Positions 24,571 to 51,158 of a stretch of DNA of 64,000 bases are shown in pieces (the first letter of the stretch is position 1; each line of letters begins with the position of its first letter). The translations under genes were made by a program, and so were the position numbers. Below the pieces are notes generated by a model. That model had not been told where the DNA came from. It saw only the letters and a program-made list of their open reading frames with translations, and made no database searches. This stretch comes from Nemertoderma westbladi (Eukaryota > Animalia > Xenacoelomorpha): assembly GCA_032718475.1 (NCBI GenBank), contig JAUCBJ010000533.1, positions 62,001 through 126,000 of the forward strand, read 5' to 3'.

Positions 24571-25881
24571 TCACAAATCATAAAAGAACGCCTCGATTAT
24601 TGAAGTTGAAGGGATTGCCGGTACCAGACCAGGTACTGCTGCAACTCGCTGAAGTTCTGAAGTTAGTCAGTTAGGTTACGGTCAGAGTCAGACAGATGAG
24701 GATGGAGGAGTGTTCAAATCTAGGGATGAGAAGTCTGGACGCGTTACACCGTTACAGCCTTCGTTAGGCAGTTAGGCCTACAGCTTTAAGCTGTTAACAG
24801 GCTGACAGGTTACTGGGTTAAGGTAGATCAGTAGATATATGCCTTACTGCCTTACTACAGTACAGCAGTACTACCCGTAGCCGTAGGCTAGGCAGCCAGC
24901 TGGTCAGGCTGTTCAGCTGTTAGGCATTAGGAAGTAGGTGGGGTAGGGGTACCCACTGACCCAAGTCCGGCATCCGGTCTGCCGGTAGTTGTGGTGGAGA
25001 GCAGGCGGTGATGTCAACAATGCAAACAGGCAGTCAGGCAATATGGAAGAGCGAAACGGGAACCAGTACAGCAGTAATAAAATAGGGATGGCATAGGGCA
25101 GAGGGGCCTACCATGGCCTACTATAGTAGGCCATGCTGCCATGGGCCTACGAAAAAACCCAGACAGAGATCGGCTGATTGAAATTGGTGAAAATATATTA
25201 AATTTCCCAAGGATAATACACCAAGAGAAGTAAAGTAAAATGTGCTCCATAATCGAAATTACGTTAAAACATTAAACATTAAACAATGATATAAAAACAA
25301 AACACTTATGGTATTATACTTAATTACAGTGTGTATATAGTATAATGATCAAACTTGGGCCACTTAAGGCCCCTGACAGCCTGAAGAAAATTGCCCTCCA
25401 CCGATACTGCACGTACCATATTAATATAACATAATGACATACAGTATAACTACAATACAAAATTTAATATTTTAGTTAAACTGCATAAACCAACTGAGAA
25501 TTAAATATCTGCTGCTTACAATGCAACGGCACGTAGTTTAAACGCACTAAAATATGCCTGGCAATATCCAAAATTATATTTGGAGCTCTTTGTACCCACC
25601 CATTAGCTCAATATATGTAAAAATACTCGGTTAAACCGTATGCAAAAAGCCAATTGCGGTGACGTTTCAGCCTTCTCATAGGGTTAATGTTAAATTAATA
25701 TTGAAAAATTAGTGCCTAGAAGTAAAAATTTTACTGTTAACTGTGTTCCTATATATAGTTTATTGTTTTGGTTAGAAAAGCCTGCTATTAATACCTGCAA
25801 CTTTCCTTTAAAAGGTACCTTAAATGGTGAATATCGAATTGAAATATTCGCGAAATTAAGTTAATATGTTAAAATACGCTG

Positions 25882-26475
25882 TGTTCGCGGTATTTCAACT
25901 TTCCATAACGCGAGTTGAATATTTTTGTATTTATTTAAAATTGATTATTCCGATATTACTACTGGGTGCGGGACCATGGGTTTTGGGCACATTCAATAAA
26001 CTGGGGGCGATTTATGGGCGAACTTTGGGGCAACTTACAGGGTACGGGAATAATTTCATAGTTATAAGGGCCAGGGGGGGATGGAAAATGCAAGCAGTAT
26101 TCAGGTTAGCCTGAGTACTATTAGGCCCTGGCCAACTTCCTGCTGCCTGTAGGGGTGGATTTGGTAATGCGCCAGGCCTAAAGGACAAGGACTGCCCTTA
26201 GCGGTCCCTGGCCAACAGCAGCCATTACGAGACTGAAAAGAACTCGGACCGCTGACTGCTTGTGTCAGGGATTTGCGACGGGAAACGACGGCCCCTTAGT
26301 AGCCAAGCCATTCTGGTTCTCGATGATCGAACCCTTCGGGGTTCGTGAGGGGTGGAGCGGACACGCGAACGGGTGGCCAACTAACGACTGCCCCCTGAGC
26401 TAAGCCGTACTGGTCTGTTAAGTCACGTCTCCAGCATCGGCGTTTTTCCCCCCTGGTGTAGGGATAACGGCAACA
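25882..26475 (+). repeat. 5' LTR (594 bp, internally deleted)
   Basis: Matches 37710-38242 joined to 39250-39310, with only two substitutions seen. Confidence 0.95.
26063..26067 (+). promoter_or_regulatory. candidate LTR TATA box
   Basis: TATAAGGG about 180 bp into the LTR, also present in the 3' LTR near 37891. Position is typical of a U3 promoter, but this is a motif match only. Confidence 0.4.
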
Positions 26476-26725
26476 AAATTAAGAATAATTAATACGGTTA
26501 ATTTTGACAGGGTGTCAAAATTAAGAATAATTACGGTCAACTTCAACTGGTGGAAGTTGAGAATCCTTCAATACTCTTCAAAACTCTCTACGTGCTTGCC
26601 AGCACCCACTACGAGGAAACTCTGGTATTTGAGTTGAGACGAAGTCGTGGTTTAATTAATCAACAAACTCGATCTAACCAACTCGTAGTCGGCAGATCAC
26701 ATATTGGGAGAGTTGTTAACAGGGA

Positions 26726-26917
26726 ATGGAAGTATCGATCACACCCATTGATATAATTCAAGTTGAGCCAGGAATCTGGCACGTCGAAGTTGAAGTACAA
26801 GGAACGAACATCGGACGATTCAGGATTACCGTTCGGGTGGTCCAAGCTGAGTACAATACCTACGAGGAACTGTTTTATGACATCGCGTATCTAGCTATCG
26901 ACGAGGCGTTACAATGA
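26726..26917 (+). CDS. 63-aa upstream ORF overlapping the gag start (ATGA)
   Basis: ATG-initiated with protein-like composition. Its TGA overlaps the gag ATG at 26914. No family recognised. Confidence 0.35.
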   Translation: MEVSITPIDIIQVEPGIWHVEVEVQGTNIGRFRITVRVVQAEYNTYEELFYDIAYLAIDEALQ

Positions 26918-29900
26918 CGACAAATAACGTATCCGATACCGACGAGATGGATCACCACACAGACTCGGAAGCCGACGAGGTACCAAACGTCAAGAACATG
27001 ACCCGTCGGCTAGGGGCTCTCAAAGGCGGAGTAACCCGAGCGTATCAACGGATGGAGAAACAACTCAAGGGAGTCAAAACCCCCCTCAATGAAGTACAAA
27101 CTCAGCTTCAAAGTATCCGAAACATCCTACAGCGGTACGAAAGAATGATACAGGCGTACCAAGAGCTCGTTCCCTCTACCGATCAGGAAAACTACCCCAA
27201 GTTGGAAGAACACGTTGTACATCTAGATGGGTTCCGCAAACAACACCGGAGGACCCTCAGCCTTGTGAGAGGCTATGAAGAACAGTATTACAAGAGGGCT
27301 GAAAGAACAGACGCGGAATCGGTACGATCCTCCAGCATCAGGACAGCAGTACATCGAAAGAGAACGGGGTCCGCTAGAAATCAGCACTCCAGCGCTAGGA
27401 GCGAGATATCCGGCTCAGCGCGCAGTTCTCAAGGGGCGCCGCCACTCCGAGACCAACTACGAGAACGGAAGGCATTAGCCCTCAAAGCTCGGATGGAAGA
27501 TGAGTATATTCAACTGCAAGCCGAACAAGATGTATTAGCCGCCGAAACACAAAAGCGAGAGGCCGAACAAGCGGCCGAACGACAGGCCGAACAACGCGAA
27601 CAGGAGGCCGAACAACATAGACGAGAGGCCGAACAACATAGACGAGAGGACGAACGGCAGGCCGAACAACATAGACGAGAGGCCGAACAGCAGGCCGAAC
27701 AACGTAGACGAGAGGCCGAACAACATAAACGAGAGGACGAACGGCAGGCCGAACAACGCAAACAGGAGGCCGAACAGCAGGCCGAACAACGCAAACAGGA
27801 GGCCGAACAACGCAAACAGGAGGCCAAACAACGCGGACGAGAGGCCGAACGAGACATCGAACAACGTAAATGGGAAGCGGAAATGCGTAAACAACACGCC
27901 GAGGCCCAAGCAATTCTCATCCACAAAAAGAATGCGGATATTGCAAAACTCGCGGAATACGAAGCCGCACTTATAGAACGAGACATTCAACTCTACGAGG
28001 ACTGGGAAAGGGATATAGATCAGGAATACGAACCAATCCCGGTACCGGAATTAGAAAAGTCATTTATACCGACAGCGGCGAAACTTCCGAAACCCGAGAT
28101 CCCGCCTACCAAACAGTCTACGCTATCGGCACAAGCACCGGTGTTCCATCCCCCACCGGCTACGCTAAAGAATGAGGAACCTTATTTCCCATCCAACACC
28201 ACGACAGCGAGTGTACCCAAGTACGAGCCTGAAAAGGACTCAGAACGGGACGCCACTCCCCAGTCTAACAACCCATTTACATCCACACCACAAACTCGTA
28301 GCCGCGTCATTATTAAAACTCCACCTATTATTGATCCATCAAGTATGGGAGTGAGTGCCAATAACTATAACCCTCAGAGTCACTCCAGTTCAGATGACGT
28401 CAGCATCATCCGGGCGTTGGAGAACCGCCTTGCCATGCCTAAGATGGAGATTCGCACCTTCGAAGGAGATCCCGTCGATTACCTCAGATTCAAGAAACGG
28501 TTCTTTGCGCAGATCGGATCAACGGACATAGCCGACGCACAGAAATTGGTATATTTATCGCAATACCTGGGTGACAAACCACGCAGAATTATTGCATGTT
28601 TCGAAGGAGGTTCTCATGAGGCATACTATGACGCATGGAAAACTCTGGATAAAAGATACGGAAATACCGGAACTATAATTAATAAAACTCTAGAGAGACT
28701 GATACAGGACGCGGGATCACTAGGGGACCCACAGAACATACAGGAATTCTCCGACTCTATGAAGGATGCCTACTATACTCTGAAACCTTTGAATAAGGAG
28801 GACCAGGTGAACAACATTCTAAACCTCCGACAGATCGCCCGGAAGTTCCCCGGATGGCTACAAAGTAAGTGGGCTTATAAATGTGTAGACCTCCGGCGCA
28901 GACATCCAGATCGAGATCCTAGCTTCCTTGAAATGTCGGCATTCCTGGACGATATCTCCGAAGCCATGAATGACTCGATGTTTTCAAAACAGAGTCTCGC
29001 AAAGTTGGACGGAATAGAGAGCAACTCCAGGAGTAAGATAACCCCTCCGAAACCGAGATTCCGCCCCCCACCGGTGAGTACGATGGCCATCACCATGGCC
29101 GAAGATTCCGACGACGAAGACTACGAGGAACCGACATCCGCCGAGGAATGGGCATGTTACCTCGCGAGTTGGGCACCCGAAAGAGAAGGCATCACAAATT
29201 CCCTGCTCTGTCTCTTCTGTGGGGAGAAACATAAAGTGGAATTCTGCAGAAAGTTTCAGTTCGCCGAACTCGTCCCACGCTTCGAGGCGATAATGAAACA
29301 CCGAGGATGCTTCCGGTGTCTTGGAACAGGTCACTATGTTCGGGAGTGCGACCAAAGATCATGCTGTGGTGTCTGTAACGACCAACGCCATCACACGCTC
29401 CTCCACATCCCCGCGAACTTCGATTTTACTACCCTCCCCTTTCGGATCGAAGCCAGGCGAAGAGGAGAAACAAACCACGTCTTCAAAGGAACCCGGACAA
29501 CCCAACGGAGAGAAACCAACCCGTTTAAAATCTCCACCGATACACCACAAGTAACAAATATTTCGGCCACGATTAATCTTATAAATTGCCGCTACATGGT
29601 TTTCGCAAAGGTAATCCCAGTAAGGATCCAAGGAGTCGGCAAATCTTTGACGACACTCGCGTTCCTCGATAACGGGTCCGACGGAACCATCATCGACCGG
29701 GATTTCCTCGAGCAACTCGGCCTAGAATATGAGCCTTGTAAACGGCCCATACAAACCATCACCGATAACAGAGAGGTAGAGTCCGGGGAGGTGCAACTCC
29801 AGATGGAAGGAGTGATGAAGGGCTACGAAATGGTTAAGTTAACCATAAAGAACGCCTTGGTACACACAGACCTCCGGGTGCGGTTCCGACAATCAGCCGA

Positions 29901-32900
29901 GTACGCCCCCCTCATACAATTGGACCGGGACGATGTAGACCTGAGGTGTCCGCAGTTGGACATAAACCGTATCACCCTACTGATCGGACTTGATACACCG
30001 GAACTACACATCCCCACCGGAGATATCGCCCGATCTACAAACCAGGATGACGGATTTTATGCTGAACGAACAATAATGGGATGGACACTCTGTGGCATTA
30101 AGGAGGAAACTACGGACACCTATACCTACCTTCCCAAATGCCAGATTAAAGAGAATGCAACCTCCGTGGGTTATTGCTCAGCTTCGGATTTTGACGAAGA
30201 TTTGTTTCTGGAAACCGAGAAAACCCAACGAGAGATGACGAAATATTTTAATTTGGAGACCCAGGAGTTCGCAGAAAAGGACGAAAACCCATCCGAAGAG
30301 GACCAATATTGTATGGACGTTCTCGACCAGGCCATGTTTAAAGACGGACACTGGTGTTCACCTATGTTATGGAAGGACCCAAACAAACCAATGGCAAACA
30401 ACGCCAGCATGGCACTTAGGCGACTTAAAGGGATTCTACGCCGGCTGAATGACCAACCCGAGATAAAGGAGAAATATAATACCGTAATCCAAGGATATCT
30501 CGATGATGGATTAGCAGAAATGGTACCACGGAACGAACTGCAAGGTGGTAAAAGAACATATTATCTCCCAACCCACTATGTAGTAGAAGCCCGCAAAGGT
30601 GGGAAAATCAGAGTGGTAAATGATGCTGCCGCTATGTACCAGGGCGAATCCCTAAACAGTCAACTTTACACGGGACACAACATATATAGCACACTCATCG
30701 GCGTATTGATCAGGTTCAGGGAAAACCAGGTAGCATTCACCTGTGACATCAAGGCCATGTTTCATCAAGTTCGTACGTTACCAAGAGACTCAGACTGTCT
30801 ACGTATCCTATGGACGGATAAAACGCTTACTCAACAGGAGATTAACCAACTCACGATAAAGGACGTAGACGTAATGCGTATGGTCGTCAGGATCTTCGGC
30901 GCTAAGGACTCGCTGGTAGCATGCAGTGACATGCTAAAGAGGACGGCAACTATGTGCGAAAACGAGTTCCCTCCAACCGTCATAAAAACCATTCGACGAT
31001 GCTTCTACGTGGACGACGGATGCGCCGGCGCGGATAATGTGGATGAGGTGTATCGGCTAGCAATGGGGATGGTAGAATGTCTAAAGAAAGGAGGGTTTCC
31101 GCTCGTGAAGTTCAGATCCCACGACAAAACATTTATGGAAAAGTTTCCGGAGGACATCCGGCTGGAAAATAACAAAATGTATTCAGAGGATGTGGAACAT
31201 CGTGTACTCGGGATTGAATGGGACATAGAATCAGACGAATTCATCTTCAAATATAAACCCCTACCCAAGCCTATGACAAAAAGGGGATGTTTGTCGATAA
31301 AAAGCGCCATCTTCGACCCACTAAATTTCATATCTCCAGTAACCTTGGCCGGAATGAACCTGATTAAGGAAATGTGGATAGAAGGACTGGGATAGGACGA
31401 AGAGCTCCCCCCACACCTCAGCGTCAAATGGAGAAAATGGACGGAGCAGCTCGAACACCTACATCTTATGCGGATACCTAGACCGTTCTTCCTCGATAAA
31501 TTACCCACCGATATCTTCCAGCTCCACACCTTTTCGGAGGCTTCGAATACCGGAATCGGCGTAGTCACCTTCTTACGGAGACTAAGTAACGATGGAAACG
31601 GCGATACAAGCTTCTTATTCTCCAAAGCAAAGACAGTATCCGGGGAATTCGTAGCAACAATTCCGAGACTCGAGCTACAAGCTGCAGTTTGGGCAGTAAG
31701 ACAGAATCGCATGGTCATGCGGAACCTACGGATCCCCATAGAATCTCAACACTTCTGGGTAGATTCGAGTATAGTTCTCTATTACCTCCACTCTCCATCA
31801 CGGCATCACACCACGTTTGTTGCAAACCGAGCCACGGAGATTAAACAGTGTACCGGCCGAGAACAGTGGCATCACGTGAACGGGAAGGAAAACCCAGCGG
31901 ACTTATCAAGCCGAGGCGCCACCCCAAAACAACTCGGTAAAAGTAAACTCTGGCTTACAGGCCCGGAATTCCTACAGCAGCCACAATTAACATGGAGTAC
32001 CCGATTCGACCCCGAGCTCGATAGCGGAAAATACTCCGAGGACGATAAAGAGATCCGTAAAGTCCATCGAAGAAACGCGGTGGAAATTTATAGTTGTCTG
32101 ACTGAGCCTGCAAAGGACTCGGGCAGGCACTATAACGTCGCGACGATCACTCAACTAGCGGCGCCTTTACATCGGTTGATCGAGCGAACTTCATCCATGA
32201 GACGGCTCGTCCACCACGTTATAACCCTTCGCAACTTCCTACGGTGGAAAAACAACAAACCGATAGTTCAACGGAATATACAAGAACTTATTATCGCGGA
32301 GAAGTGTATTGTTAGATATGTCCAGAAAGAAAGTTTCCCCGATGAATGGGAACAACTTAGTGCGGGCAAAACGTTGAAACCGGACAGCCCAGTCTATCAA
32401 CTGAGACCAATGATGGGAGAGGACGGACTGATCCGACTGAATACCCGGATGGCAAACGCCCCGGTCGAATATGAGGTTAAATACCCGGCGCTTCTGCCCG
32501 GAACGTCGACACTAGCTAAGCTATTAATTCTACAATGTCACGAGGACAACCACCACGCAGGACAGAATTGGATTATAGCTAATATAAGACAAAGATATTG
32601 GATCACCCACATCCAGCCACTGATCCTGAAAGTGTTGAAACGTTGCTTCACCTGCAGACGTTACCTAGCGCCACCAATCACCCAAAAGATGGCCGACTTA
32701 CCAGCCACCCGTCTACAAGCGGATTCCCCACCATTCTACGTCACCGGAGTGGACTGTTTCGGACCGTTCACGGTTATTGAATGACGATCCAACATCAAAT
32801 GCTGGGGAGCCATCTTCACCTGCCTAAGGTCTCGGGCAATTTACCTAGATATCGTGGTAAATCTGACACAACACGCATTCATCAACGCTCTGCGTCGGTT

Positions 32901-33711
32901 CGTGGCGAACAACGGGACATGCCGCCACATGTATTCCGATAATGGTACAAACTTTGTGGGAGGAGAAAGAGAACTTAGAGAGGCGATCGAGGGATGGTTT
33001 ACCGATAACACCGCATCCCAAGTCTGGAAGGAACACCAGATACAGTGGCACTTCCAGACCCCCTTAGCACCCCATACGAGCGGGGTAAGGGAGAAACTGA
33101 TCGACCTAGTGAAACGATCCATGCGCGTCGCTCTAGGCGATACCCGGGTAACCCATGACACCCTCCGCACAACATTCTGCGAGATCACGGCTACCCTGAA
33201 CAACCGACCCATTGTTCCTATCCGCGACGACCCCACAGACCTGGAGCCCCTCACTCCTAACCACTTACTGGGGAGACCCAAAACCCACGTCCTCCCAGAA
33301 ACCATGTTCCCGGATCCCAATGAGATCGCGAAACATACGAACTGGAAAAAGGCCCAAGCGTTGGCAGCGCATTGGTGGAGAATTTGGGCCCAGGAGTATC
33401 TCATAACCCTCCGGACCAGGAGGAAATGGAACAACACCTACAGGAACGTCGCAGTTGGCGACATGGTACTAGTTAGAGAAGATCTCAAAGACCGCGTTCA
33501 CTGGCCTGTGGCGCGGGTCGTGACCATACACCCAAGCAAAGACGGACTTGCGAGGACTGTGACGATACGAACGAAATCGGGCCACTACCAACGCCCTATC
33601 CAGAAGCTGTGCCTTCTTGAAGGCAATGACAGTGGTGATTCTACGAGAGGTGATAAGTTCCCTACTCAAGATCCTGCTGCGGACATCGGTGACAATGACA
33701 AATGCGTTTAA
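26914..33711 (+). pseudogene. BEL/Pao gag-pol polyprotein with two in-frame stops
   Basis: ORFs 26914, 31468 and 32854 share one frame. Motifs: DUF1759-like gag (FEGDPVDYLRF), triple Cys/His knuckle (CLFC..H, CFRCLGTGH, CGVC...HHTLLH), protease FLDNGS, RT (DIKAMFHQV, FYVDD), RNase H (LHTFSEAS, IPRLELQAA, NPADLSSRG) and integrase (GVDCFGP, SDNGTNF, LTPNHLL). Stops at 31393-31395 (TAG at a conserved W) and 32782-32784 (TGA). Confidence 0.95.
27560..27880 (+). repeat. coding tandem repeat in gag (EAEQRKQ/QAEQ coiled coil)
   Basis: GAGGCCGAACAA-based in-frame units of 12, 21 and 33 bp. Confidence 0.85.
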
Positions 33712-33994
33712 ACCCTTCTCATCATGTTGACAAACTCTTTTTAAACTGTGATTTACTGACAATGAGTTATGGACCCCCCTTAAACCAACTGTAACCACGC
33801 AATGGTATTTGTGTTTCCCCGTGTGTTATGTGGAGTCCAGCGTCACCCTGCAGATGTTTCGGCTGACGCAGGGTCGTTTATGTTTTGTTTACCCTGATTT
33901 TGGTCATCAGGACCTACGATATTGGATTATTGGAAATGGAAAAGATTTGAAGTGGAATTCATTGTATTCATTGCAGTATGTTATGTTGTCCGTT

Positions 33995-34410
33995 GCGTGC
34001 GCAGTTCGGGGCGTAGGCGGTGTAACGAGTCCAGCTGTAGATCCTGGATTGCCGCGCAACACCCCCTCTATCCCGTTATTCTGGTGGGTCCATGGTGCAT
34101 CCACATGACTTCGACGATAGAGGGTTTTATGTTCTCAGTCGCGTTATTCTGGTGGGACCGTTGCGTGGATTTTGGGGCGTAGGCGGTGTAACGAGTCCAG
34201 CTGTAGATCCCAGAATGTTGCGTAACCCCATCCCACATGACTTCGTAGACTGAGCTGTATGTTGTTGGGAGTGTTATTCTGGTGGGTCCCTGGTGCATCC
34301 ACGTGACTTCACTCCCAGCGTCTTCATTGTCCATTACGTGCGCAGTTTGAGGCGTAGGCGGTGTAACGAGTCCAGCTGTAGATCCCAGATTGCCGCGTAA
34401 CACCCCTTCC
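33995..34410 (+). repeat. three degenerate direct repeats between pol and the extra ORF
   Basis: GGCGTAGGCGGTGTAACGAGTCCAGCTGTAGATCC occurs near 34010, 34176 and 34351. GTTATTCTGGTGGG also occurs three times. Confidence 0.85.
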
Positions 34411-34943
34411 ACGACAAAGATTAACCAAAGAAAATGATTCAATATAGTTGGATCAGACAACTCTACTATAAACCTGAATGATGACGCGTATGCTGATGAA
34501 AATGAAATGATGCGCACCCTGGTGCTGCGCTTATAACCAATGATGATAGCCGGGGGGCTATAAACCCAATGATGATGTGGAAATAAATAAATGTGAAATA
34601 AATGGTGGAACTAAATGATGAAATATATGTGGAAATAAATGAAATGAGATGAAATAATAATGAAATGAAAAAAGAAAAAAAAAAGGTATAAAAAAGTCTA
34701 AAGAAAAGAATTAGAAAAAAGAAAAGGACAAAAAAGTCATAAAAAACTGGTTGGATATTAATGTATAGCTATAGTAACTGTAAATGCTGAATGTATTAGC
34801 AATAAGATGATAGATGCCTATATAGCAATGTTATTAATAAACTGAATTAAATAAAAAACTGAATTATTCTGCTATCGCTATAGTTTCAGACTTTCTGGAC
34901 TTATAATTAACTGATCTAATTTGTAACGGATATAATCGTAAAT

Positions 34944-37544
34944 ATGGACCCAAATCGCCAAATTATCGGCGAATTACGTAACACGATAGATCTACTGGAA
35001 TATTCGCAACCCGGATCCCCTGACTTTGATACAAATTGGAGCACCCTGCTAAATGAGAACGTGCGAGTCATTAAATTCACCGGGCGAGAGGGACCGGATT
35101 CTAAGAATCTACGAGCCCTCCGGTTAGCCGATGCTAGTACGAGACTGAAAAGAACTCGGAACGCAAAGGCAACCGGAGGGGACGATTCGTCGTTTTGGGA
35201 AACGTTCCGGCAGAGCGTTTACAGATCCCGATGTTTGATCTACGACAACGAAGGAAACGCGACGCCCACCTCGAAAGCGATTACATTGGCGAGATGTCAA
35301 AGTTTCGTCGACGACAAGAGTACGTACCTCGCCCACTGGGGAAACCTGTCAGAGTGTATGGCGACGCTTCGAGAGGAACGCGTATCGATTATCCAGAACC
35401 GAGACGACTACCAGGAAAAGTACGGGGCGAAAGAATACGGTCGATCCTTAGTCGTCGTCCTCGGAACCCTGGACGGTTTGGTACTGGTGTGCCGAATATT
35501 CCCGACACCCAGACAGGAAGTGCAGGCAGCCGGAGCGATCTGGTTGCTGCCTCCGGAAATCCAAAAGATCCTCTTCGACTTCGACGTCATTAAAATCGGG
35601 TCAGATATCAAGGCGGACGTCCGGAACGACTACGCGAACGCTCCTGCAGGAAGAAACCGACGAGACGACCTCAACGCCCTTAGCCATTGCATCGACACTC
35701 AAACGCTACTAGCCTGGTTACGATTCGCCGAGTTCATGCGAGGATTCGAAGAGGTGAGACCGACGAAATCAGGGATCGGCTACCTCGCTGTGCTCAACGG
35801 CGGTATCGACTTCAAACCCCAGAAATTCCGGGACTATAATAAAATATACGGTGGATACCCGGGATTAGAAATAAAGAGCGAGCGAGAGGGTCGATGGAAG
35901 GACGTTGATCGGAAGTGGACGATACACCAAAGGTGGGAGAATCCCGATCGACGGAACTACGTTTACGTCGTTATGGAGTGCTACACCGTCGCTAAGTTTA
36001 TCTGTAAAACTCTCGATAACCTTATTACGGCGGTCCCCCTTTCCTTCGTCGACTACGACTGGAACGAGGTCATACACCACGCGTTCAAAGCGGTCGAGAA
36101 CATCGCACCGGGAGAGACTAAAACGCTCGCCGTTATCGATTCCTGGGACGAGAGCGGACCCTACGACATCCCTACGATTACCGAACTTCTCGGTGCGGAG
36201 GAGCCTCTGATCTCTTCGGAAGGGGAAGAGATATGGCTAAACGAGGGTGTTCTACTCTCCACCCCGAAGCGACAACTCGAGCCGGAGGCCGCGTATGGAC
36301 CGGCCGCCAAACGGGTTGCCTCGGCCGAATCGATGAAGAGAGCAGGCGTTTACACCCCACGCGGCTCCGGTAGCCCCGCGAGGGAGGTAGCTACTACAGC
36401 TGCATTGAGCGACTTCGGCGACATATGCCAACGGTTATCCCCGTATCCTTTCCCGGGTGGCGAAGATTGGTCGTCGGAGATTCCGAGTACCAGCCACCAA
36501 CGGACCCGCGCAGCGATACTGATCGAGGAGGGCCCCAGTGATGCGCCGACCCCCGACGATCTCCTCGGTATCCCTCCGTCTAAAACCCCGGCACCTCTTC
36601 GCCGACCAGCGGTGGCTACTACACCCGCCGTTCCTCAGGACCCTATGCGACTAACCCGTTGGTACGCCGAGCAAACTGAATGGATCCACCGCCAGAAACG
36701 GTCATCCGAGTTGAGACCAGCGGGATACAAAGAAGGTTATCGGAGCGAGAACCTACTACGCAAAAGCCTAGCATTCCGCGGGCTACCGACCACCGCGAAT
36801 ATTCCGAAGAGCGACCGACGACTCGAGTATCACGTCGGCGTCCCGATTCCGATATTTCCTGGTCGAGAGATGCAGTTGGAGGTATGCGGCGACTGTGGTT
36901 CGGAGCAGTGCCCACGCGGCAGAAGGAATCGGGTTACCGATTCATGCCTACAGCTCCTCGGGATACTCTATTGCCCATACTGCGCGACATCGGGCCACGA
37001 CGTTTCCGTCTGTCCGATCCTTTATAACCTCTGCACCACGTGCGGTTTCCGTGGACATTCCTCTAGCCCCCGCTGCTATATCAAATGTCCAACCAAAGAC
37101 GTTACCGCTATGGGAAATATGGTCATGTTTGAAACATACGCAAACAGCCACTTAAAGACCAAGGTTCGGAGAAACGCTCGGAATATTGCGCAGGAGATGG
37201 CGTGCGGGTATTTCTCCTTCCCGGAACACCTCCACACGTCGGCCACACTACCTTTCCATTACGTGGATCTGCTACTGAGCGCCGGATTATTCGGGCCATT
37301 TGAAGTCATTAGACGATTATACTCGTATAAAGAGGAGTTCGGTGACGGAGAATGGTTCCTAGAGGCACGCAAGTCTGAGTTGGAAAGACGAACCGACATG
37401 ATCCCTATGCCTTCGAAAGGAAGAGCCGCCAGGAGACAAGCCGAAGCGTTACTCACAATGGATGTTGACGCTCCTCTACCAGCCATAGCGATCGATGAGA
37501 GTCGACGGGCGAAGAGACGAAAGGCGTATCAGAGAAAGAAATAG
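34944..37544 (+). CDS. retrotransposon extra ORF: DEDDy-like (WRN/EXD/MUT-7-type) 3'-5' exonuclease domain plus CCHC zinc knuckles
   Basis: 866-aa open frame. ExoI LIYDNEG (D101, E103). LPPEIQKILFDFDVIKIGSDIKAD (ExoII D225) matches the WRN-exo pattern LPxxLxxLLxDxxIxKVGxxIxxD, followed by CIDTQ and SGIGYL. ExoIII W......YVYVVME (Y341, E345). Knuckles CPYCATSGHDVSVC and CTTCGFRGHSSSPRC. Confidence 0.75.
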   Translation: MDPNRQIIGELRNTIDLLEYSQPGSPDFDTNWSTLLNENVRVIKFTGREGPDSKNLRALRLADASTRLKRTRNAKATGGDDSSFWETFRQSVYRSRCLIYDNEGNATPTSKAITLARCQSFVDDKSTYLAHWGNLSECMATLREERVSIIQNRDDYQEKYGAKEYGRSLVVVLGTLDGLVLVCRIFPTPRQEVQAAGAIWLLPPEIQKILFDFDVIKIGSDIKADVRNDYANAPAGRNRRDDLNALSHCIDTQTLLAWLRFAEFMRGFEEVRPTKSGIGYLAVLNGGIDFKPQKFRDYNKIYGGYPGLEIKSEREGRWKDVDRKWTIHQRWENPDRRNYVYVVMECYTVAKFICKTLDNLITAVPLSFVDYDWNEVIHHAFKAVENIAPGETKTLAVIDSWDESGPYDIPTITELLGAEEPLISSEGEEIWLNEGVLLSTPKRQLEPEAAYGPAAKRVASAESMKRAGVYTPRGSGSPAREVATTAALSDFGDICQRLSPYPFPGGEDWSSEIPSTSHQRTRAAILIEEGPSDAPTPDDLLGIPPSKTPAPLRRPAVATTPAVPQDPMRLTRWYAEQTEWIHRQKRSSELRPAGYKEGYRSENLLRKSLAFRGLPTTANIPKSDRRLEYHVGVPIPIFPGREMQLEVCGDCGSEQCPRGRRNRVTDSCLQLLGILYCPYCATSGHDVSVCPILYNLCTTCGFRGHSSSPRCYIKCPTKDVTAMGNMVMFETYANSHLKTKVRRNARNIAQEMACGYFSFPEHLHTSATLPFHYVDLLLSAGLFGPFEVIRRLYSYKEEFGDGEWFLEARKSELERRTDMIPMPSKGRAARRQAEALLTMDVDAPLPAIAIDESRRAKRRKAYQRKK

Positions 37545-37700
37545 TGGATCGGGATATTCCAGGAACATTTATCGAACATTTATTTTTATACAAACTCTAG
37601 GCCAAATTAATTAAAAACTATGCAATATTAAATTTGGGTTTTTTATATTGGGAATGACCTACGCAAACTCAATCGACCGACAGACTTCACGAAGGTCATT

Positions 37701-37709
37701 GGGGGGGAC
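37701..37709 (+). other. polypurine tract
   Basis: GGGGGGGAC immediately before the 3' LTR. Confidence 0.8.
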
Positions 37710-39310
37710 TGTTCGCGGTATTTCAACTTTCCATAACGCGAGTTGAATATTTTTGTATTTATTTAAAATTGATTATTCCGATATTACTACTGGGTGCGGG
37801 ACCATGGGTTTTGGGCACATTCAATAAACTGGGGGCGATTTATGGGCGAACTTTGGGGCAACTTACAGGGTACGGGAATAATTTCATAGTTATAAGGGCC
37901 AGGGGGGGATGGAAAATGCAAGCAGTATTCAGGTTAGCCTGAGTACTATTAGGCCCTGGCCAACTTCCTGCTGCCTGTAGGGGTGGATTTGGTAATGTGC
38001 CAGGCCTAAAGGACAAGGACTGCCCTTAGCGGTCCCTGGCCAACAGCAGCCATTACGAGACTGAAAAGAACTCGGACCGCTGACTGCTTGTGTCAGGGAT
38101 TTGCGACGGGAAACGACGGCCCCTTAGTAGCCAAGCCGTTCTGGTTCTCGATGATCGAACCCTTCGGGGTTCGTGAGGGGTGGAGCGGACACGCGAACGG
38201 GTGGCCAACTAACGACTGCCCCCTGAGCTAAGCCGTACTGGTTCTCGATGACCGATCCCTTCGGGGTTCGCGAGGGGTGGGACGGACATGCGAAAGGGCT
38301 GGCCACAGGACGGGTTCGACGAGGACTGCCCTTAGCGGTCTCTGGTCAACGGCAGCTATTACGAGACTGAAAAGAACTCGGAACGCTGACTGCTTGTACC
38401 GGGATCTGCGACGGGAACCGACGACAGACCCCTTAGCCAAGCCGTACTGGTTCTCGATGATCGTTCCCTTCGGGGTTCATGAGGGGTGGAATGGACATGC
38501 GATGGGGTCGAAAGACAAAGGACTAGACTCTACTGGCCTACCGACTGTTCGGAGCAGTTTCTCGGCTGCCGAAGCGACTACGAGCCTGAAAGGGACTCGG
38601 AAAGCCTAGGTGGTTGGGTTTCTGCGATGAACCGACGGACCCCTAGCCAAGCCGTTCTGGTTCTCGATGATCGAACCCTTCGGGGTTCGTGAGGGGTGGA
38701 ACGGACACGCGAACGGGTCCACCGACACGACAGACTCCTAGCCAAGCCGTACTGGTTCTCGATGACCGATCCCTTCGGGGTTCGAGAGGGGTGGTACGGA
38801 TACGCGACAGAGTCTACCGACTGGACCAACCCTTAGCCAAGCCGTGCTGGTTCTCGATGATCGTTCCCTTCGGGGTTCGTGAGGGGTGGAACGGACACGC
38901 GACAGGGTCGACCGACACCGACACTACGGCACTAATACTAGGACCGAGGGAAAATCTGGGGAACATTAGGTAGGCTAAAATCTGAGCGAACAGTGGGTAA
39001 TTAAATAATATACCGTAGGGATTTATATTATCGTGTATAATTATTGTGAATATTTGGTGTATATTGATTTGGGGAAGCCCAAAATTATTCTTAATCAAGT
39101 TTCAATGATGTTGAACGGGTTTCAACTATAGGAAGTTACATTAAAGAGTATATCCAACTAATGCAGCTTTTTATCAACCGCAAACTTGCATCTCAGAAAA
39201 CATTCCCTCCCCTCAATCAATATCCGGTGACTGGCCGGGGCTCGGTGGTCTGTTAAGTCACGTCTCCAGCATCGGCGTTTTTCCCCCCTGGTGTAGGGAT
39301 AACGGCAACA
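37710..39310 (+). repeat. 3' LTR (1601 bp, full length)
   Basis: TGTTCGCGG...CGGCAACA followed by the TSD CGCTG. Confidence 0.95.
38018..38910 (+). ncRNA. putative cis-acting structured RNA array in the LTR (6 K-turn/UUCG hairpins, 3 GAAA hairpins)
   Basis: Repeated CTC-GAT-GA-Y-stem-CTTCGG-stem-N-GA-GGG and CGAG-ACTGAAAAGAA-CTCG modules, with compensatory changes in the outer stems. Confidence 0.6.
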
Positions 39311-40509
39311 CGCTGAAACGACACCTCAATTGGTAAGTACCTGCATCTCAGGTTATTATAAGCAGCTACAAACTAACAAACAACTTCAAAGTTAGATATT
39401 CATCTCATCGTCAATTAAATCAGCACTACACATATTGCAAATACGTTGTTCCCTAACTATTCCATGCCATCATCCCGTTACTATATTAAGATAACAGTCG
39501 TCGCCTAACTAAAAGATCAGTTAACACATGTAAATAAATATGTTGAGGGTTCAAAAATTTATTTAATATAAAATCAACCTTTTGGGGAAGATGCCACTTC
39601 AGATACACGTAGGTGACACATGAGTTTCAACTTTCAATTAAAAGATAGAACACATTGATGACTATGGTACATAATGTTCTACTGTATCTTACTTTAAATT
39701 TGGTATCTTTCTCATTGACAACCACTCAGGTACTGAAATAAAAATAACAAATAAATATCACATATGAATATTTGTAAAGCACATCATGGTGTCAGTCATC
39801 CCATGTTAGAAGGATAGGTACTAAATGAGAATCAAATTTGAAAATTGTTGAGATTCAATAATGTGTGTAGGGTGCAGTTCATCTGGGTCCCGCCACGGCA
39901 GTCCAGTTTCCAGGTGTATGTATATGTTATGTCATTATGTCATAAAGTGGATGAAAGTTGCACCACACAGTTTCAACTGTTTCGGTATATTTTCCCAATA
40001 ATGAAATCCAGATATTAATACTGTATAGGGGAAAGCAGCACCGCTGGTAGCTAAGCTAGTGATTGCTGCTGCCCGGGGGGGGGGGGGGGGGGGGGGGTGG
40101 TTCTAAATGCCATTTAATTTAGTTAGTACGATTATAAAATATTAATGATACTTAAAGTATTGAGTGTAATATGTCGATATGTACAGTATTAAATAGCAAT
40201 AGGTGACTAATACAGTAGGAATAAGTTAGCATGGCGTACAATTCTTTCTTTAAGGGTGCTCCTTAAGACCTCGTGGTTAAAATAATCTCTCTAAAATCAG
40301 TGAAATCACTCTTAATGCAGCACGGCCATCTCGTCGGCCATCATATGAAGAAGGCCTTGGCTATGATCTCATTCATCTAACATCTAACCATACAGTACTG
40401 TAAAGACAGTAGAACGTTTAAACTTCTAACATGTAAACTTCGGAATAATTTCTTCACTCGGAAGAAAATATGACAATTAGTGCTTCCGAAGTTAGTTGTG
40501 CTCGTCAGT

Positions 40510-42070
40510 AGGTTCTGACAATTTGTCAGCTGAACACTTTATAAACAGCAATTGTGAACGACTTAACTCATAGCATTATTTTTAAGCACGTTTTTAAGCA
40601 ATTTTTGTGCTTAAACACGGTTTTCTAACAAGTGCAATTATCGATAGTATCATATAGTACCGATTATTAAAGATAAGAATTGTGATATAAGCGACAAAGC
40701 GAACTATCGACCAGTTGCCATAGCAACGGCCTTCAGTAAGCTTTTAGAATATATTATTTTATCTCGGATACAAACCCATTTAATATGCAGTGATTATCAG
40801 TATGCTTTCAAACCGAATAGCGGTACAGAATTATGTGTATATACATTAAAAGAAGTAATAGATTATTACCTAGACAACGAGACGCCAGTTTATGTTTGTT
40901 TCTTGGATGCCTCAAAAGCTTTTGATCGAATCGACCACGATAAATTATTCCAGAAATTAATTTCTCGGAACGTTCCCATTTATCTTGTTCGCCTCCTCGC
41001 ATTTTGGTACCGCAATCAGACGTTGAAAGTGAGATGGAGTTCCACATACTCCAAATCATTTACAGTGTCCAATGGCGTCAAGCAAGGTGGAGTGTTGTCT
41101 GGATATTTTTTCAATGTGTACATGGACAACCTATCTTGTAATTTATCTTGTGCTAATGTTGGTTGTATGATTAACGGGCGTAGGATAAACCATTCAATGT
41201 ACGCAGACGATATCAGTTTGATATCAAATTCATTGGTAGGTGTACAGAAACTGATTAACACCTGCGAGGAATATGCTATTTCGCACTCGATTTCTTTCAA
41301 CTTAAAGAAAAGTAAAGTTGTGATATTTTGCCCGAAATCACGAAAAGTAAGCCAAATGGCGCAGGTTTTTCTTTTTGATCGTGTACTTTCTAGAACGAGC
41401 ATGTATACATACTTAGGCCATGTTATTCATGATACACGAGATGACGATTATGATATTAAGAAATTAACTCGAGGTGTTTACGCTCGCGCTAACATGTTAA
41501 TTCGTAAATTTATACGCTGCTCTAATTTAGTGAAAGTGAAACTGTTTCGTGCATTTATAACTCCGCTGTACTGCAATGCTCTCTGGTCACGTAGTAATTA
41601 CTCATCAATTGTTTACAACCGACTTAGAGTAGCGTACAATAACGCAGCACGTAAGCTTTTCTCGATCCCGTTTGGTGCTAGTTTGTCGAATTTCTTCGGT
41701 TGTAAAAATTTACCATGTTTCATTCACATTCGATATAAATCAATTTCCAGTTTACATAGTAGAATTTCTATGTCTAATAATGTAATCATCAATTCAATTA
41801 GTTGCTATACATATTTTCATGGTTCACGAATTAATGATATGTGCGATTCAAGAAATTTGGTTTCATAGTTTATATCCCATTATCCTCCGTTAGTAATTTT
41901 CACTTTATAACTACATATTTATAATTAGTATAAATTATAATATCATATGTGCTGTAGGTAGATAGATCGATGTAGAATAGTTACAAATAGATATGGGCTG
42001 ATTGTTGTTTGTAATATAAATATCATGTTGCCTGGTGTAAATGATAAATAAATAAATAAATAAATAAATA
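40510..42070 (+). mobile_element. 5'-truncated non-LTR retrotransposon (L2/CR1-group-like) RT fragment
   Basis: VPIIKDK..D.SDKANYRPVA, QYAFK, FLDASKAFD, GVKQGGVLS, YADD and YTYLG motifs. Frameshift near 40650. (TAAA)n tail at about 42045-42070. Confidence 0.9.
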
Positions 42071-42289: not shown

Positions 42290-43993
42290 ACAAGTCCCTA
42301 AAAGGTGCCACCCTGCTCCATAACGCGGGAAATTCAAATGATTGAAAGACATGTAATTTATACTGCAAAGGCCAAAGGCAGAAAGGGTGGCAGATCAGAT
42401 CTGCCACCTATATTTTGGCGGTAAATTCAAATCTGTTTTAACATTGAATATATGAATAGAGTAAGACTAATGTAATACGGCCTAATGTAATAATGGGCCC
42501 GCATACCCAGTAGTGACCGTGTTTGTATATGTGATGGCAGTTCAGTACAAAATGAACATCATGCAATTTTAATGTGCCCAAAAACCGCCTTTATAAGAAA
42601 CAAGTATAGTATTGTAGGCTGCATTTGTATGTCCGAATTTATGGTTCAGTTTTCAAATAATATAATAGTAAGTGCAATTACAGAATGTTTAGAAGTATTA
42701 GATAACTAGAATTCATGTAAATTTGTATTAAGTTGGACTGTATCTTTGTCGCAATGGTATATTTACAAGTTATTATTGTAAATTTATTTAATTGATTTAA
42801 TTTGGAAGATATTGTCAATAAACATATATATATATATAATTCATTGAATCAGAATAAATTATTTCTTATCGGTTTAACTCACTCATCCGTTGTTGTTGTT
42901 GTTTTATCTATTCTGGGGCTTCGAGCAGCACGTGAACAATTAAGCTGACTGGTTAACTAGTCTGGGACTTCGAGCAGCACGTGAACAACTAAGCTAACTG
43001 GTTAACAAGTCTGGGACTTCGAGCAAAATTTAAAATTGAGGAGGGGGGCGGGTCGGGTGATTTGGCTTAACTTCTATCCCAGTAAAGTATAGAACATTAT
43101 AATCCTAACAATTAATACACTTATACCAAGTATGTTAATAGTGGATTTCAAGTGGATAGATGATAGAAAGACGCAGTGAATTGATATATTTTTGGCGTTT
43201 GATTCAAATTACAGAATTATAATATTTCCATTACAAACTGTACACAGTGTGCTACATAATGTACGTGGGTACGTACTAAAAGGTCAAGGAGCTAGAGCAG
43301 TAGACTTCATACAGTAAACTTCTTACTGTAGTAGTACTTACAGTACTTCTACTGTAATAACAGTTCAGTTTAGTTGTTCACGTGCTGCTCGAAGTCCTAG
43401 ACTAGTTAACCAGTCAGCTTAATTGTTCACGTACTGCTCGAAGTCCCAGACTAGGAAACCAGCCAGTTTAGTTGTTCACGAGCTGCTCGAAGTCCCAGAC
43501 TGGGAAACCAGCCAGTTTAGTTGTTCACGTGCTGCTCGAAGTCCGAGACTAGGAAACCAGCCAGTTTAGTTGTTCACGAGCTGCTCGAAGTCCCAGGCTA
43601 TTTAACCAGTCAGCTTAATTGTTCACGTGCTGCTCGAAGTTCCAGACTAGTTAACCAGTCAGGTTAGTTGTTCACGTGCTGCTCGAAGCCCTAGACTAGT
43701 TAACCAGTCAGCTTAGTTGTTTACATGCTGCTCGAAGCCCCAGAATAGATAAAACAACAACAATAACGGATGAGTGAGTTAAACCGATAAGAAATAATTT
43801 ATTCTGATTCAATGAATTACATTTAGTCTTGCTCTCTTCATGTAGGGTATTCAATGTTAAAACTGATTTGAATTTACCGCCAAAATATAGGTGGCAGATC
43901 TGATCTGCCACCCTTTCTAGTACAAATTACATGTCTTTCAAGCATTTGAATTTCACGCGCTATGGAGCAGGGTGGCACCTTTTAGGGACTTGT
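42290..43993. mobile_element. non-autonomous foldback (Mutator-like) DNA transposon
   Basis: Long TIRs ACAAGTCCCTAAAAGGTGCCACCCTGCTCCATA.../...TATGGAGCAGGGTGGCACCTTTTAGGGACTTGT. 9-bp TSD GTCTGCTAG at 42281-42289 and 43994-44002. Internal tandem repeats lie in opposite orientation in the two arms. Confidence 0.9.
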
Positions 43994-46211: not shown

Positions 46212-46848
46212 GTGATAAATGTTTTTCACCCGGGTGATAAATATTTTTAACCCGGGTGATAAATGTTTTTCACCTGGGTGATAAATGTTTTTCACACGGG
46301 TGTTAAATGTTTTTCACCCGGGTGATAAATGATTTTCACCCGGGTGATAAATGTTTTTCACCCGGATGGTAAATATTTTTCAGCCGGGCGATAAATGTTT
46401 TTCACCAGGCCAATAAATGTTTTTCACCCGTGTGATAACTGTTTTTCACCCGGGTGGTGAATGTTTTTCAACCGGGTGATAAACGTTTTTCACCCGGGTG
46501 ATAAATGTTTTTCACAACGGCGATAAATGTTTTTCACCCGTGTGATAGCGTTTTTCACCCGTGTTTTCACTCGGATGGTAAATGTTTTTCAGCCTGGTGA
46601 TAAATGTTTTTCACAACGGCGATAAATGTTTTTCACCCGTGTGATAAATGTTTTTCACGCGGGTGATAAATTGTTTCACCCAGGTGATAAATGTTTTTCA
46701 CCCGGTGGGTGAATGTTTTTCAGCCGTGTGATAAATGTTTTTCACCCGGGTGAAAAAAAGTTTTTCACCCGGGTTGTAAATGTTTTTCAGTCTGGTGATA
46801 AATGTTTTTCACAACGGCGATTAATGTTTTTCACCCGGGTGATAAATA
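46212..46848. repeat. 22-bp minisatellite
   Basis: Consensus GTGATAAATGTTTTTCACCCGG. Unit junctions form the palindrome TCACCCGGGTGA. Confidence 0.95.
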
Positions 46849-48522: not shown

Positions 48523-51158
48523 TTACTCAAGGTTAAAGGTAGGAATAGGACGAGTTCCCATATAATCACCTATAGGATTGTATGTAACATCGTAACCAAA
48601 GGCTTTTGGCCCAACGACTCTCAGAGCCTCCGGGGTAGTGAGCAACGGAGGTGCGGGCAAACATATGACGCTCACTCTGAGACCGTATCGCAACTCCTCG
48701 CAAGGAATCCCAGTTCCCAACTCCAGGTTTAACACCGCTATAAGATCCGGCACGCTCGCCAATATCTCATCTCCGCATTTCGCTATTAAATTTTCGTTTT
48801 GGAATTCAACGACAATGGATTTATCAGCAAATGCCCTCGTCCCTTGCACTGTTATGCTACCGAAATTAAATCCACCTTGAATCCTGCGAAAAGAATCCAC
48901 GATCTTTCCTGATATCAACAACTTGCCATTTTCCATTTCAATAATTCTCCCAACGGGAGACTTATTTTCGCGTTTGGCTGTCAGCACTGCGTGACCTAAA
49001 TGTCGTATTCTACTCAGACTGTTAGCCACAAAGTAACGCCCAACGCCTTCTTTATCGCAAGACACCATGGATAAACCACCAGATATACCCATCTCGGTGA
49101 CTATAAACCTAAAGCGGTCTTCTGTCGCCTTGGCTGAGGGTGATTTTACAATAACAGCGCAACGACCTTTATTATCGGTGAGCACCGCAGGTGCGGACGA
49201 TTCACCGTAAACAAACGGACCGAACATCTGCAGTTCGGGGAAGGCGCGACCCATCCCATCCGCGTCCACTACCGGTATCCCTAACGCCGCTCCTATGGCA
49301 ACCGGTTCTAGACTATTCAAGCCCCCGACCTCCGCACAAATAACACTCGTATTACTCCAATTAACTCCAGCATCCACCGGAGACCAATCCTCTATGTAGA
49401 CAACTCCTTTATCATCCACTTTACATAAATTACCGTTATTCTTTATAAAAACATCAATATCGGTAAATTTATCTACTATTTCAGAATAGACTCTCCTTAA
49501 ATACGTCACAGCTTGAACGGTCTCTTTACCTGTGCAAAGTTTCTCTATCAATATTGTCGGGGCACCCATAAAGGCAATATTAACAACTTTGCCATCACGT
49601 GGTATACTACTTGGGTCTATAATCTTTGTGGTTCTGCCATCTTTCAACATCTTGATTAACCTCAACCGACCTGCTCTGGGAGAGCCACCACCCCCGCATC
49701 CAAGGATAGTGGCTCCAACACTCATACACTCGACATCGTACAGACTCACTATCCACTCACCATCTTTATTGACAACTGCTTCTGTGTGTTGCTCAACAAT
49801 CTCAGAGCCTTCCACGTTTTTCAATATCTCAACAGACTTCGGATTGAAACTTCCTGAAAGACGTTCGATAGCAGATAGATCACGAGAACACACACCAGCT
49901 ATATCGTCTCTACCAACATCATCCACTTGCAGAAGGAGATCCGAAACTATTTTAATTTTAAGTCGCACCGTATTCACTGTTCCTTGAACATAGCTCAACT
50001 GAATCTCAGAGATTTCTGTGATTTCGTTGTTATCCATGTCGCCTCCGGCTCGCCCCAACATAACCTTAGCTTCCTCCTTTGCATCGCTCAACGCTCTTTC
50101 CCTATTGTCCATGATGACGATTCTATCGAAGGTCGCGCTAATCTGACTAAGGGCAGCCCCAACGGCATTGGCGACGTCATAGAAAGGTGGTCGAATAACT
50201 TGACTCGCGCATTTTAATTCTAACGATTTAATGAGGCAACTTCCACCGCCTACGAGCAGAACCTTGACAGGTTCTTTGCTGGTTTTCATCTGATCTACAG
50301 CATCCTCAACAATTTCTAGAATTTTATTATGTACCTTGTCGATAACCGCTTTATCCAAAAGTTCTTTATCGAGTAGATCCTTATTTCCGATATCTAGTAG
50401 ATCTTCAGCGACGGCCACGTCAGTAGTGGTGAAGACGTCTCCCCCGAACACCAGGGAATCCGCCTCCAGACGATGTCCAACACTCCGTGGACCAACCGTG
50501 ACGATCCCATCAACGTCGACCCCAACCACGGAACCCCCACCCAAACCAACGCTGCTGGTATCCGGTAGGGAGAAATTCGTACGGATCCCCCCCATATAAA
50601 CGACAGAACCAGCTTGACGGGGGAATCCACCAACCAGAGCCCCAACATCGGTGGTGGTGCCTCCGATGTCAACCACTATGCCATCCTTGATGCCGCTGAG
50701 AAAATACCCGCCTCTAAGTGAGTTAGTTGGACCACAGGATACAGAGCGCACTGGATAAGTAAGCGCATCTTCCGGAGTTAGAAGGGTTCCATCATTCTGA
50801 GTAAAAAATACGTTACAATCAAGCCCGAGATTTTCAATACCTACCTCAAACGATCGAAGCATGTTCTTACTTATTGGTTTAAGAGTTTCATTGAGTAATG
50901 ATGCGTTTTCTCTCTCCAGTATCCCGGTGCTGCTAACTTGATGTGATAAAGTAACACTAATGTCAGGAAACTTCGACTTCAAATATTCACCAACCGCGAT
51001 CTCTTGACTGTTGTCCACCGAACTGAAGACACCGCTAATGACGCAGTTAGCTACTCCCTTGAGTTTCATGTCTCGTATCGCATCTTCAATCTGATTGAAG
51101 TTGATTTGAGATATAGGAGTCCCATTGTATTCACAACCTCCATCTACCATATACTCAC
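48523..51158 (-). CDS. hydantoinase A/oxoprolinase-like plus DUF917 fusion protein, large 3' exon
   Basis: Motifs GILERENASLLN, QNDGTL, GPTNSLRG, VVDIGGTTTDVG, GLGGGS, VANAVGAA, then DUF917-type GATILGCGGGG, EVGGLN, DADGMGRAFPEL, FQNENL, VPDLI and ELRYG. Acceptor ttcttctag lies just 5' of 51158. The N-terminus is absent. Confidence 0.85.

Follow-up and report, generated by a model that had tools for sequence, protein, structure and literature searches.

A BEL/Pao retrotransposon of Nemertoderma westbladi carries a conserved third gene with a predicted EXD/Nibbler-type exonuclease fold and a zinc-knuckle module

We analyzed a 64-kb stretch of Nemertoderma westbladi DNA (contig JAUCBJ010000533.1; hereafter the window), which contains a complete long terminal repeat (LTR) element of 13,429 bp (~13.4 kb; 25882-39310, plus strand) with a third open reading frame (ORF3) behind its polymerase gene (pol). 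The element has a 5' LTR of 594 nt (25882-26475) and a 3' LTR of 1601 nt (37710-39310), both with TG..CA ends, and is flanked by identical 5-bp target-site duplications (25877-25881 and 39311-39315). The LTR pair shows 2 differences in 594 aligned bases, and 1007 nt of the 3' LTR, comprising five of the six ~85-nt hairpin repeats described below, are missing from the 5' LTR. A polypurine tract (37701-37709) directly precedes the 3' LTR. Gag and pol form a single frame (26914-33711, plus strand) with two in-frame stops (31393-95 and 32782-84). Its Pfam domains are, in order, DUF1759, aspartyl protease, Peptidase_A17, integrase H2C2, rve and DUF5641; DUF1759, Peptidase_A17 and DUF5641 scored above the cut-offs, the protease just below and rve below, and pol contains a YVDD motif. 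The signature of DUF1759, Peptidase_A17 and DUF5641 identifies the element as BEL/Pao, the assignment made in an earlier note on this DNA, and the LTR ends, target duplication, polypurine tract and Pao-type domain order (protease, RT, RNase H, integrase) are those of this superfamily. A further character of Belpaoviridae is that the 5' LTR is followed by a primer-binding site of 18 nt for tRNA-Arg or tRNA-Gly. Here, no TGG was present immediately 3' of the 5' LTR, the first candidate lying ~70 nt further on, and no tRNA genes were found in the window. The length of the element and of its 3' LTR are outside the descriptive range for Belpaoviridae of 4.2-10 kb and 0.2-1.2 kb, respectively (PMC8742986).

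ORF3 (34944-37544, plus strand) begins after the pol stop at 33711, ~1.2 kb behind pol, and ends ~155 nt before the polypurine tract. As the earlier note claimed, the frame is open over 866 amino acids (aa), and the residues that it singled out are all at the positions given there. In the N-terminal half, a region predicted to adopt a DEDDy/EXD-type exonuclease fold (aa 79-390; 35178-36113), well supported from ~aa 165 onward, contains a candidate ExoI motif D101-x-E103 (35244-35252), the ExoII residue D225 (35616-35618) and an ExoIII motif Y341-x3-E345 (35964-35978). A conserved C-terminal module (aa 648-790; 36885-37313) consists of a Cys cluster beginning at C648, two CCHC-type knuckles (C677-x2-C-x4-H-x4-C690, and C697-x2-C-x4-H705 with a later Cys) and an F-E..A..G..Y tail. 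The protein ends in a basic stretch with 8 K/R in 12 aa (37506-37541), which from its composition may serve in nuclear localization or RNA binding. ORF3 does not show the features of an env-like gene, i.e. an evident signal peptide, a membrane anchor or fusogen homology. None of its five most hydrophobic windows is N-terminal, and no match to a fusogen was detected in Pfam or by PDB sequence search. The only strongly hydrophobic stretch (aa 168-186) reaches a Kyte-Doolittle value of 2.08 but is not a membrane anchor: EXD2 and Egalitarian align here with strands of their exonuclease fold, and the model shows a pair of strands. The earlier statement that ORF3 has no evident signal peptide or transmembrane anchor thus holds, with this one qualification as to the anchor.

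The combination of ORF3 with a BEL/Pao pol recurs outside the window. A HMMER scan of 1.84 billion representatives returned 7 proteins at E<=1e-3, none of them informatively named. With a pattern derived from the knuckle region we found 46 matching stretches in metagenome contigs, five of which were confirmed as loci (L001-L005). In three of the five (L003, L004 and L005), the ORF3 homologue is preceded by a BEL/Pao gag-pol of the same orientation, with 24-36% identity to that of the window; L005 carries 407-bp LTRs. L003 and L005 are 77% alike and were counted as one lineage, so that the arrangement is present in three distant lineages (the window, L004 and L003/L005). Against this, L001 is without pol within 8.4 kb upstream, and the sequence of L002 is truncated just ahead of the ORF. 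Three scans of a viral contig collection yielded no confirmed ORF3 locus, and a plasmid collection no ORF3 match. The ORF3 homologue of L001 (8070-11270) has a canonical Y-x3-D and is surrounded on both sides by patchy direct and inverted repeats. From this layout, L001 is possibly a non-autonomous element containing ORF3 only; its origin as a spliced LTR-ORF3-LTR retrocopy was not established, the flanks consisting only of patchy repeats of 70-76%. The homologue P0003 (L002:124-2022) has two copies of the knuckle module in addition to a degenerate exonuclease region.

Sister copies of the element were used to assess selection on ORF3, with read data covering ORF3 only. Among the best-supported 40 of 261 difference rows, 28 changes were synonymous and 12 non-synonymous, with 0 stops. 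The fraction of 28/40 compares with 24-30% expected (p<2e-7) and corresponds to an omega of roughly 0.13-0.18; note that sample X1, one of those compared, may be the source sample. Counted by hand, the same 40 changes divided into synonymous and non-synonymous as 10:4 in the exonuclease region, 13:7 in the linker and 5:1 in the knuckle module plus tail. For aa 79-166 the hand count was 5 synonymous versus 1 non-synonymous, including a synonymous change in the E103 codon. Sample X5, which is possibly RNA, covers 12 of 30 bins. Single contigs of sample X4 carry frameshifts in ORF3, and in sister contigs the frame is ungapped down to ~81% identity. In the comparison of L003 with L005, the ratio of non-synonymous to synonymous substitution rates (dN/dS) was 0.15 for the knuckle module, 0.17 for the exonuclease half and 0.10 for a control piece of pol; comparisons with L001 were saturated. 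Thus, purifying selection acts on ORF3 both here and in another lineage, and the gene is neither absent from sister copies nor decaying neutrally in them. The earlier note had also pointed to the intact ORF3 next to a gag-pol with two stops. This contrast carries no weight, since the chance that both stops fall into gag-pol by length alone is 0.52.

The N-terminal half of ORF3 is predicted to have a DnaQ-like fold of the DEDDy/EXD type, on several lines of evidence that are each modest and all concordant. When PDB was searched with a profile of 8 exonuclease stretches of the family, with no known exonuclease included, three sequences scored at E<=10, and each was of EXD type: EXD2 (3.3e-4) and Egalitarian (5.4e-4 and 3.5e-3). 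The same three hits were obtained, more weakly, with a 4-row profile. ORF3 aa 173-366 matched a hidden Markov model built without ORF3 at E 9e-17. In the ESM Atlas, 24 of 30 ORF3 neighbours were clusters carrying PF01612, the best at 0.92 with 163 shared features and PF01612 on 50% of the cluster. Structure prediction from the single sequence reached a predicted local distance difference test (pLDDT) score of 34, and an AlphaFold model from 15 rows a mean of 44.6, with moderate values in aa 170-265. When this model was aligned with VIA-align to 48,161 chains, DnaQ-type exonuclease domains (classed as such from their titles) accounted for 43 of 50 rows and for all of the top 15, while the other 7 rows match helices at aa 50-135. 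The best match was Nibbler (Z 6.3, root-mean-square deviation 4.2, 169 residues aligned), and WRN, polymerase exonuclease domains and, lower, Exd1 were also found. WRN and RNase D serve here as general points of comparison.

Other results weigh against this assignment. In the Atlas, clusters without a name rank first (0.93-0.94), and the best PF01612 cluster, at 163 shared features, stays below the 170 typical of same-family hits. The model is poor, with aa 1-166 below pLDDT 50 except for single residues, and every VIA-align Z is below 8. Foldseek, which the earlier note had proposed as a check, found nothing at E<=1e-3 in PDB or BFVD: many DEDD proteins appeared in the PDB list, with Hermes transposase at the top, and the BFVD list was noise. 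ORF3 alone had no Pfam match at cut-off (one hit, E 0.16), and no exonuclease family was detected by Pfam on ORF3, on 7 homologues or on ORF3 pieces among 23 locus ORFs. PDB searches with the single ORF3 sequence gave chance hits only. Searches for homologous proteins, covering near lengths only, returned nothing with aa 80-400, only P0002 itself with a 3-row alignment, and nothing at E<=1 with an exonuclease-only alignment. Nonetheless, the profile hits, the PF01612 neighbours and the Nibbler-led structural matches agree with the DnaQ-like fold predicted earlier.

We next consider the active site. D225 aligns with the Asp of homologues (P0002, P0004 and P0010), of Egalitarian and of EXD2. At ExoIII, ORF3 has Y341-x3-E345 instead of the canonical Y-x3-D, as had been noticed before. 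This Glu is shared with P0002 and P0004, and is therefore a lineage trait and not the decay of one copy; P0010 and P0012 have Asp. D225 and Y-x3-E are retained across 25-28% identity. Judged by these residues, ORF3 is a DEDDy-like variant and not a canonical DEDDy member. A literature search for Klenow D501E, with Glu at the ExoIII position, found no papers. The tetrad varies within the family, being D-E-D-E in P0001, P0002 and P0004, D-E-D-D with His in place of Tyr in P0010, and D-E..Y-x3-D in P0012, where no ExoII Asp stands out. P0003, P0006 and P0008 have lost catalytic residues in frames that are open over 633-1025 aa, and P0007 and P0009 are without an exonuclease region.

The assignment of ExoI is less straightforward. 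In homologues, ExoI lies ~10-15 residues before the second strand, while D101-x-E103 is ~55 aa out of register. The motif ends a helix-plus-strand segment located upstream of aa 105-161. The window around D101 is the best-scoring ExoI window of ORF3 (8.4, versus -2.2 for the alternative strand aa 137-153). The displacement is found beyond this copy as well: 34900-35644 is covered gaplessly by a contig of another study, and contigs of ~81-84% identity align over aa 75-146 with no gap. MAFFT alignments placed D101/E103 in register in one case and out of register in two others. Several findings count against D101. Shuffled sequences equalled the score of its window in 54 of 300 cases for aa 1-400 and in 28 of 1000 for aa 1-168 (p about 0.03-0.18), and the ExoI Asp fell on D101 in only 2 of 18 pairwise alignments. 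Moreover, hhalign puts the N-terminal helix and edge strand of the homologues on aa 105-161, with the ExoI strand in a gap, and most VIA-align fold matches begin at aa 115-137, i.e. after D101. Note that the structural model was built from an out-of-register alignment, so that the start of the fold matches is not an independent test of D101. On balance, it is slightly more likely than not that D101 and E103 complete the active site with D225 and E345. An N-terminal tandem duplication as the cause of the displacement found no support in the sequence (421 of 1000 shuffles were as good). The nuclease had earlier been called intact, with its acidic residues expected to cluster in a model. Both go beyond the evidence: D101/E103 are the best ExoI candidate but out of register, the low-confidence model does not place them in the aligned fold, and several homologues with long open frames have lost catalytic residues.

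The C-terminal zinc module is the more constant part of the protein and was found in every homologue. Eleven residues are invariant in all 13 module copies compared, which derive from 12 proteins or pieces. Of the invariant residues, C648, C677, Y679, C680, H685 and Y773 do not belong to the pattern by which the module copies had been delimited. The module had no match in Pfam and no fold match in the whole-protein structure search. Two adjacent CCHC-type knuckles are also present in retroviral nucleocapsid and in Lin28; in ORF3 they are embedded in a larger conserved module. The hits to HIV nucleocapsid and Lin28 are weak (E 0.05-0.13), which tells against a close likeness, and the match to the element's own Gag knuckles is borderline (E 0.07). 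The Atlas neighbours of the P0002 module are CCHC clusters, all below 0.9. Thus, the two knuckles of the earlier note are borne out as motifs within a conserved module, and their resemblance to nucleocapsid is weak. That the knuckle module is constant while the tetrad varies suggests that the protein mainly serves to bind nucleic acid, with cutting being optional; the homologues were mostly found via the knuckle module, which biases this comparison. Taken together, we consider ORF3 to be a third gene conserved in a lineage of BEL/Pao elements, which combines a predicted EXD/Nibbler-type 3'-5' exonuclease fold with a zinc-knuckle module, at a probability of about 0.9.

Predicted RNA hairpins recur along the element. 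Six ~85-nt repeats occupy 38125-38916 (plus strand) of the 3' LTR, and one copy is present at 26290-26384. They contain a UUCG-capped stem, a 3-nt bulge and tandem G-A pairs, a core that presumably fits the box C/D-type kink-turn (k-turn) pattern; 90% of cells in these repeats pair. Three further ~85-nt repeats, also predicted to form hairpins, are located between pol and ORF3 (33986-34409, plus strand; z -2.4, -0.9 and -0.7). Another hairpin recurs at 26226, 28222, 35138, 38054, 38360 and 38579 (plus strand), and more weakly at 26610, 27458 and 33642. Its copies fall within the LTRs, gag and ORF3 itself (35133-35164, plus strand), and have an internal loop that we take to be loop-E/sarcin-ricin-like. 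Its 6-base core occurs 14 times on the plus and 3 times on the minus strand, with 10 in the inner region versus 3.5-5.7 expected. From this distribution, the hairpin is possibly a dispersed packaging or protein-binding signal. A functional reading of the hairpins is opposed by covariation of the LTR repeats equal to that of shuffles (336/500), by mostly unremarkable folding z-scores, by the absence of window-wide enrichment of the core pattern (11 vs 7.9) and by the lack of any link found between ORF3 and the hairpins. Rfam gave 0 matches across 25800-39400 at E<=5.

As to function, we tentatively propose that the ORF3 product is an accessory RNA-binding factor for the element's own RNA, with possible trimming or guarding of 3' ends. 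Like env, ORF3 would be expressed from a spliced subgenomic RNA; this is suggested by its env-like position and by the acceptor-like signal of L004, where a pyrimidine tract and CAG stand right before the ORF3 ATG. The knuckles would bind element RNA, perhaps at the hairpins repeated along it, and the 3' end of the bound transcript might be trimmed or guarded. D101, E103, D225 and E345 would form a two-metal D-E-D-E site, and catalysis would be optional across the family. A precedent is Egalitarian, whose exonuclease-like domain binds RNA stem-loops and can do without its catalytic residues (PMC13186709).

Alternatively, ORF3 might be a counter-silencing nuclease that binds and trims or destroys the host precursors of PIWI-interacting or small interfering RNAs that silence the element. 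Nibbler, EXD2 and Egalitarian are its nearest solved folds, with Exd1 lower, and several such proteins act in small-RNA pathways (Nibbler, PMC5622571; Maelstrom and EXD1, PMC5408684). The family is abundant, with 3087 and 1551 contig records in two runs, and a viral exonuclease, arenavirus ExoN, suppresses host innate signalling (PMC7968707). We nevertheless regard this role as unlikely, given the several open-frame homologues without catalytic residues and the report that rotifer DEDDy ORF3s did not clearly track copy number (PMC5408684).

A pseudo-nuclease adaptor is somewhat less likely still. Here ExoI would be lost and D101/E103 a coincidence, and ORF3 would be a carrier that exports or transports unspliced element RNA via the LTR hairpins, in the manner of Egalitarian or Rev/Rex. 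Rev/Rex/Rec response elements are known from retroviruses. The ExoI strand missing in register, the start of the fold matches after D101, Egalitarian among the top hits, the basic C-terminal tail and the six 3' LTR repeats with their presumed k-turn-like core all fit such a carrier. In contrast, retention of D225 and Y-x3-E despite 25-28% identity, the rank of the D101 window over all others including aa 137-153, and the excess of synonymous changes in aa 79-166, one of them in the E103 codon, argue for a maintained site. Similarly doubtful is a circuit in the style of complex retroviruses, in which the ORF3 of a widespread BEL/Pao lineage, built from an EXD-type nuclease fold and nucleocapsid-like knuckles, would act in trans on an array of k-turn-like and loop-E-like hairpins of its own LTR. 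Element RNA would thereby be exported, protected or hidden from small-RNA silencing, by means of an unusual D-E-D-E site with a relocated first strand.

A DNA-directed role, in proofreading for the reverse transcriptase or in trimming cDNA 3' ends before integration, we consider improbable. The fold matches include WRN and polymerase exonuclease domains, 3'-end processing has been proposed for the DEDDy domain of Dada transposases (PMC3706591), and the 13.4-kb element exceeds the family range of 4.2-10 kb. However, ORF3 follows pol at a distance of 1.2 kb as a gene of its own, nothing points to a way for its product to enter the particle, its sequence hits are EXD2 and Egalitarian and no polymerases, and dead homologues persist with open frames. 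Among the functions proposed in the earlier note, proofreading is the least supported. Finally, a neutral passenger, i.e. an exon acquired from the host or a nested insertion not yet decayed, would agree with the youth of the copy (2/594 LTR differences; probability of no new stop 0.82), but is already largely refuted and very improbable in view of purifying selection in two lineages, the same slot in elements 24-36% identical in pol and sister contigs ungapped to ~81%.

Juno and Vesta are gypsy-type elements. DEDDy ORF3s with the motif DEED are described in these bdelloid elements and in Athena/Terminons, where their activity is untested (PMC5408684; repeated in PMC6338049, PMC6431247 and PMC5718144), in agreement with the mention in the earlier note of such cargo in some gypsy-type and Penelope-like elements. 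Like ORF3 of the window, the rotifer ORFs are DEDDy-like third frames behind pol, without coiled-coil or membrane segments and with an Asp-to-Glu change in the tetrad. They differ in residing in retrovirus-like and Penelope-like elements, not BEL/Pao, in having DEED rather than D-E-D-E, and, by description only, in that the available text mentions a Cys-His-Cys motif alone, versus the separate double-knuckle module here. Intragenomic variation is given there for the env and GDSL ORFs only (PMC5408684). EXD2, the Egalitarian ExoHD and Nibbler, of the EXD/MUT-7/WRN branch, are the best profile and fold matches, but are host genes with other partner domains and 10-14% identity in fold alignments, and ORF3 is set apart from them by its ExoIII Glu, displaced ExoI and knuckle module. 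Dada DNA transposons likewise have a mobile-element DEDDy domain in zinc-finger-bearing proteins; there, it is inside a DDE transposase and keeps all four DEDD residues (PMC3706591). The env-like third genes of Belpaoviridae (roo F-like and chuvirus-like glycoproteins) occupy the same slot as ORF3 (PMC8742986, PMC13524379). In contrast to these, ORF3 shows no glycoprotein features or matches and has a soluble nucleic-acid-binding architecture. The genes of Belpaoviridae are given as gag, pol and env only (PMC8742986), consistent with the earlier view that a DEDDy ORF is not known as a standard BEL/Pao feature, and the word exonuclease is absent from the main text of PMC3118150 and PMC13524379. 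We found no such gene in BEL/Pao in the literature; this search did not extend to Repbase, to most subscription papers or to the supplements of PMC3118150 and PMC5408684, any of which could hold such elements. Thus, ORF3 is of a known kind, a retroelement ORF3 with a DEDDy-like fold, and what is new is the host superfamily, the knuckle module and the D-E-D-E site.

The window contains further features. An unbroken frame of 881 codons at 48523-51168 (minus strand) encodes hydantoinase/oxoprolinase and S-Me-THD domains, an architecture known from microbes or fungi; horizontal transfer into the animal genome is possible. A second unbroken frame, of 582 codons at 61533-63281 (minus strand), has 2OG-Fe(II) oxygenase and Ofd1 C-terminal domains and is OGFOD1/Tpa1-like and intronless. 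Frames of non-LTR-type reverse transcriptase are located at 40648-41868 (plus strand) and 52023-52700 (minus strand). Satellite arrays of 39, 22, 35 and 147 bp extend over 1-21833, 46212-46847, 54793-57257 and 58203-60844, respectively, and a fold-back structure at 42290-43993 has 49-bp subrepeats in its inverted arms.

In conclusion, BEL/Pao elements are described as having an env-like gene or none in the third-gene slot (PMC8742986); in this lineage, the slot holds a selected gene with a predicted nuclease fold. This extends the rotifer observation to another superfamily, in elements that are only ~30% alike in pol, and suggests that mobile elements repeatedly recruit exonuclease folds of the small-RNA-pathway type. 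Beyond the rotifer case, it adds an abundant family, evidence for selection, natural variants that either have or lack the catalytic residues, and a conserved zinc module that has no name. With purified protein, the role of transposon-borne DEDDy genes becomes testable.

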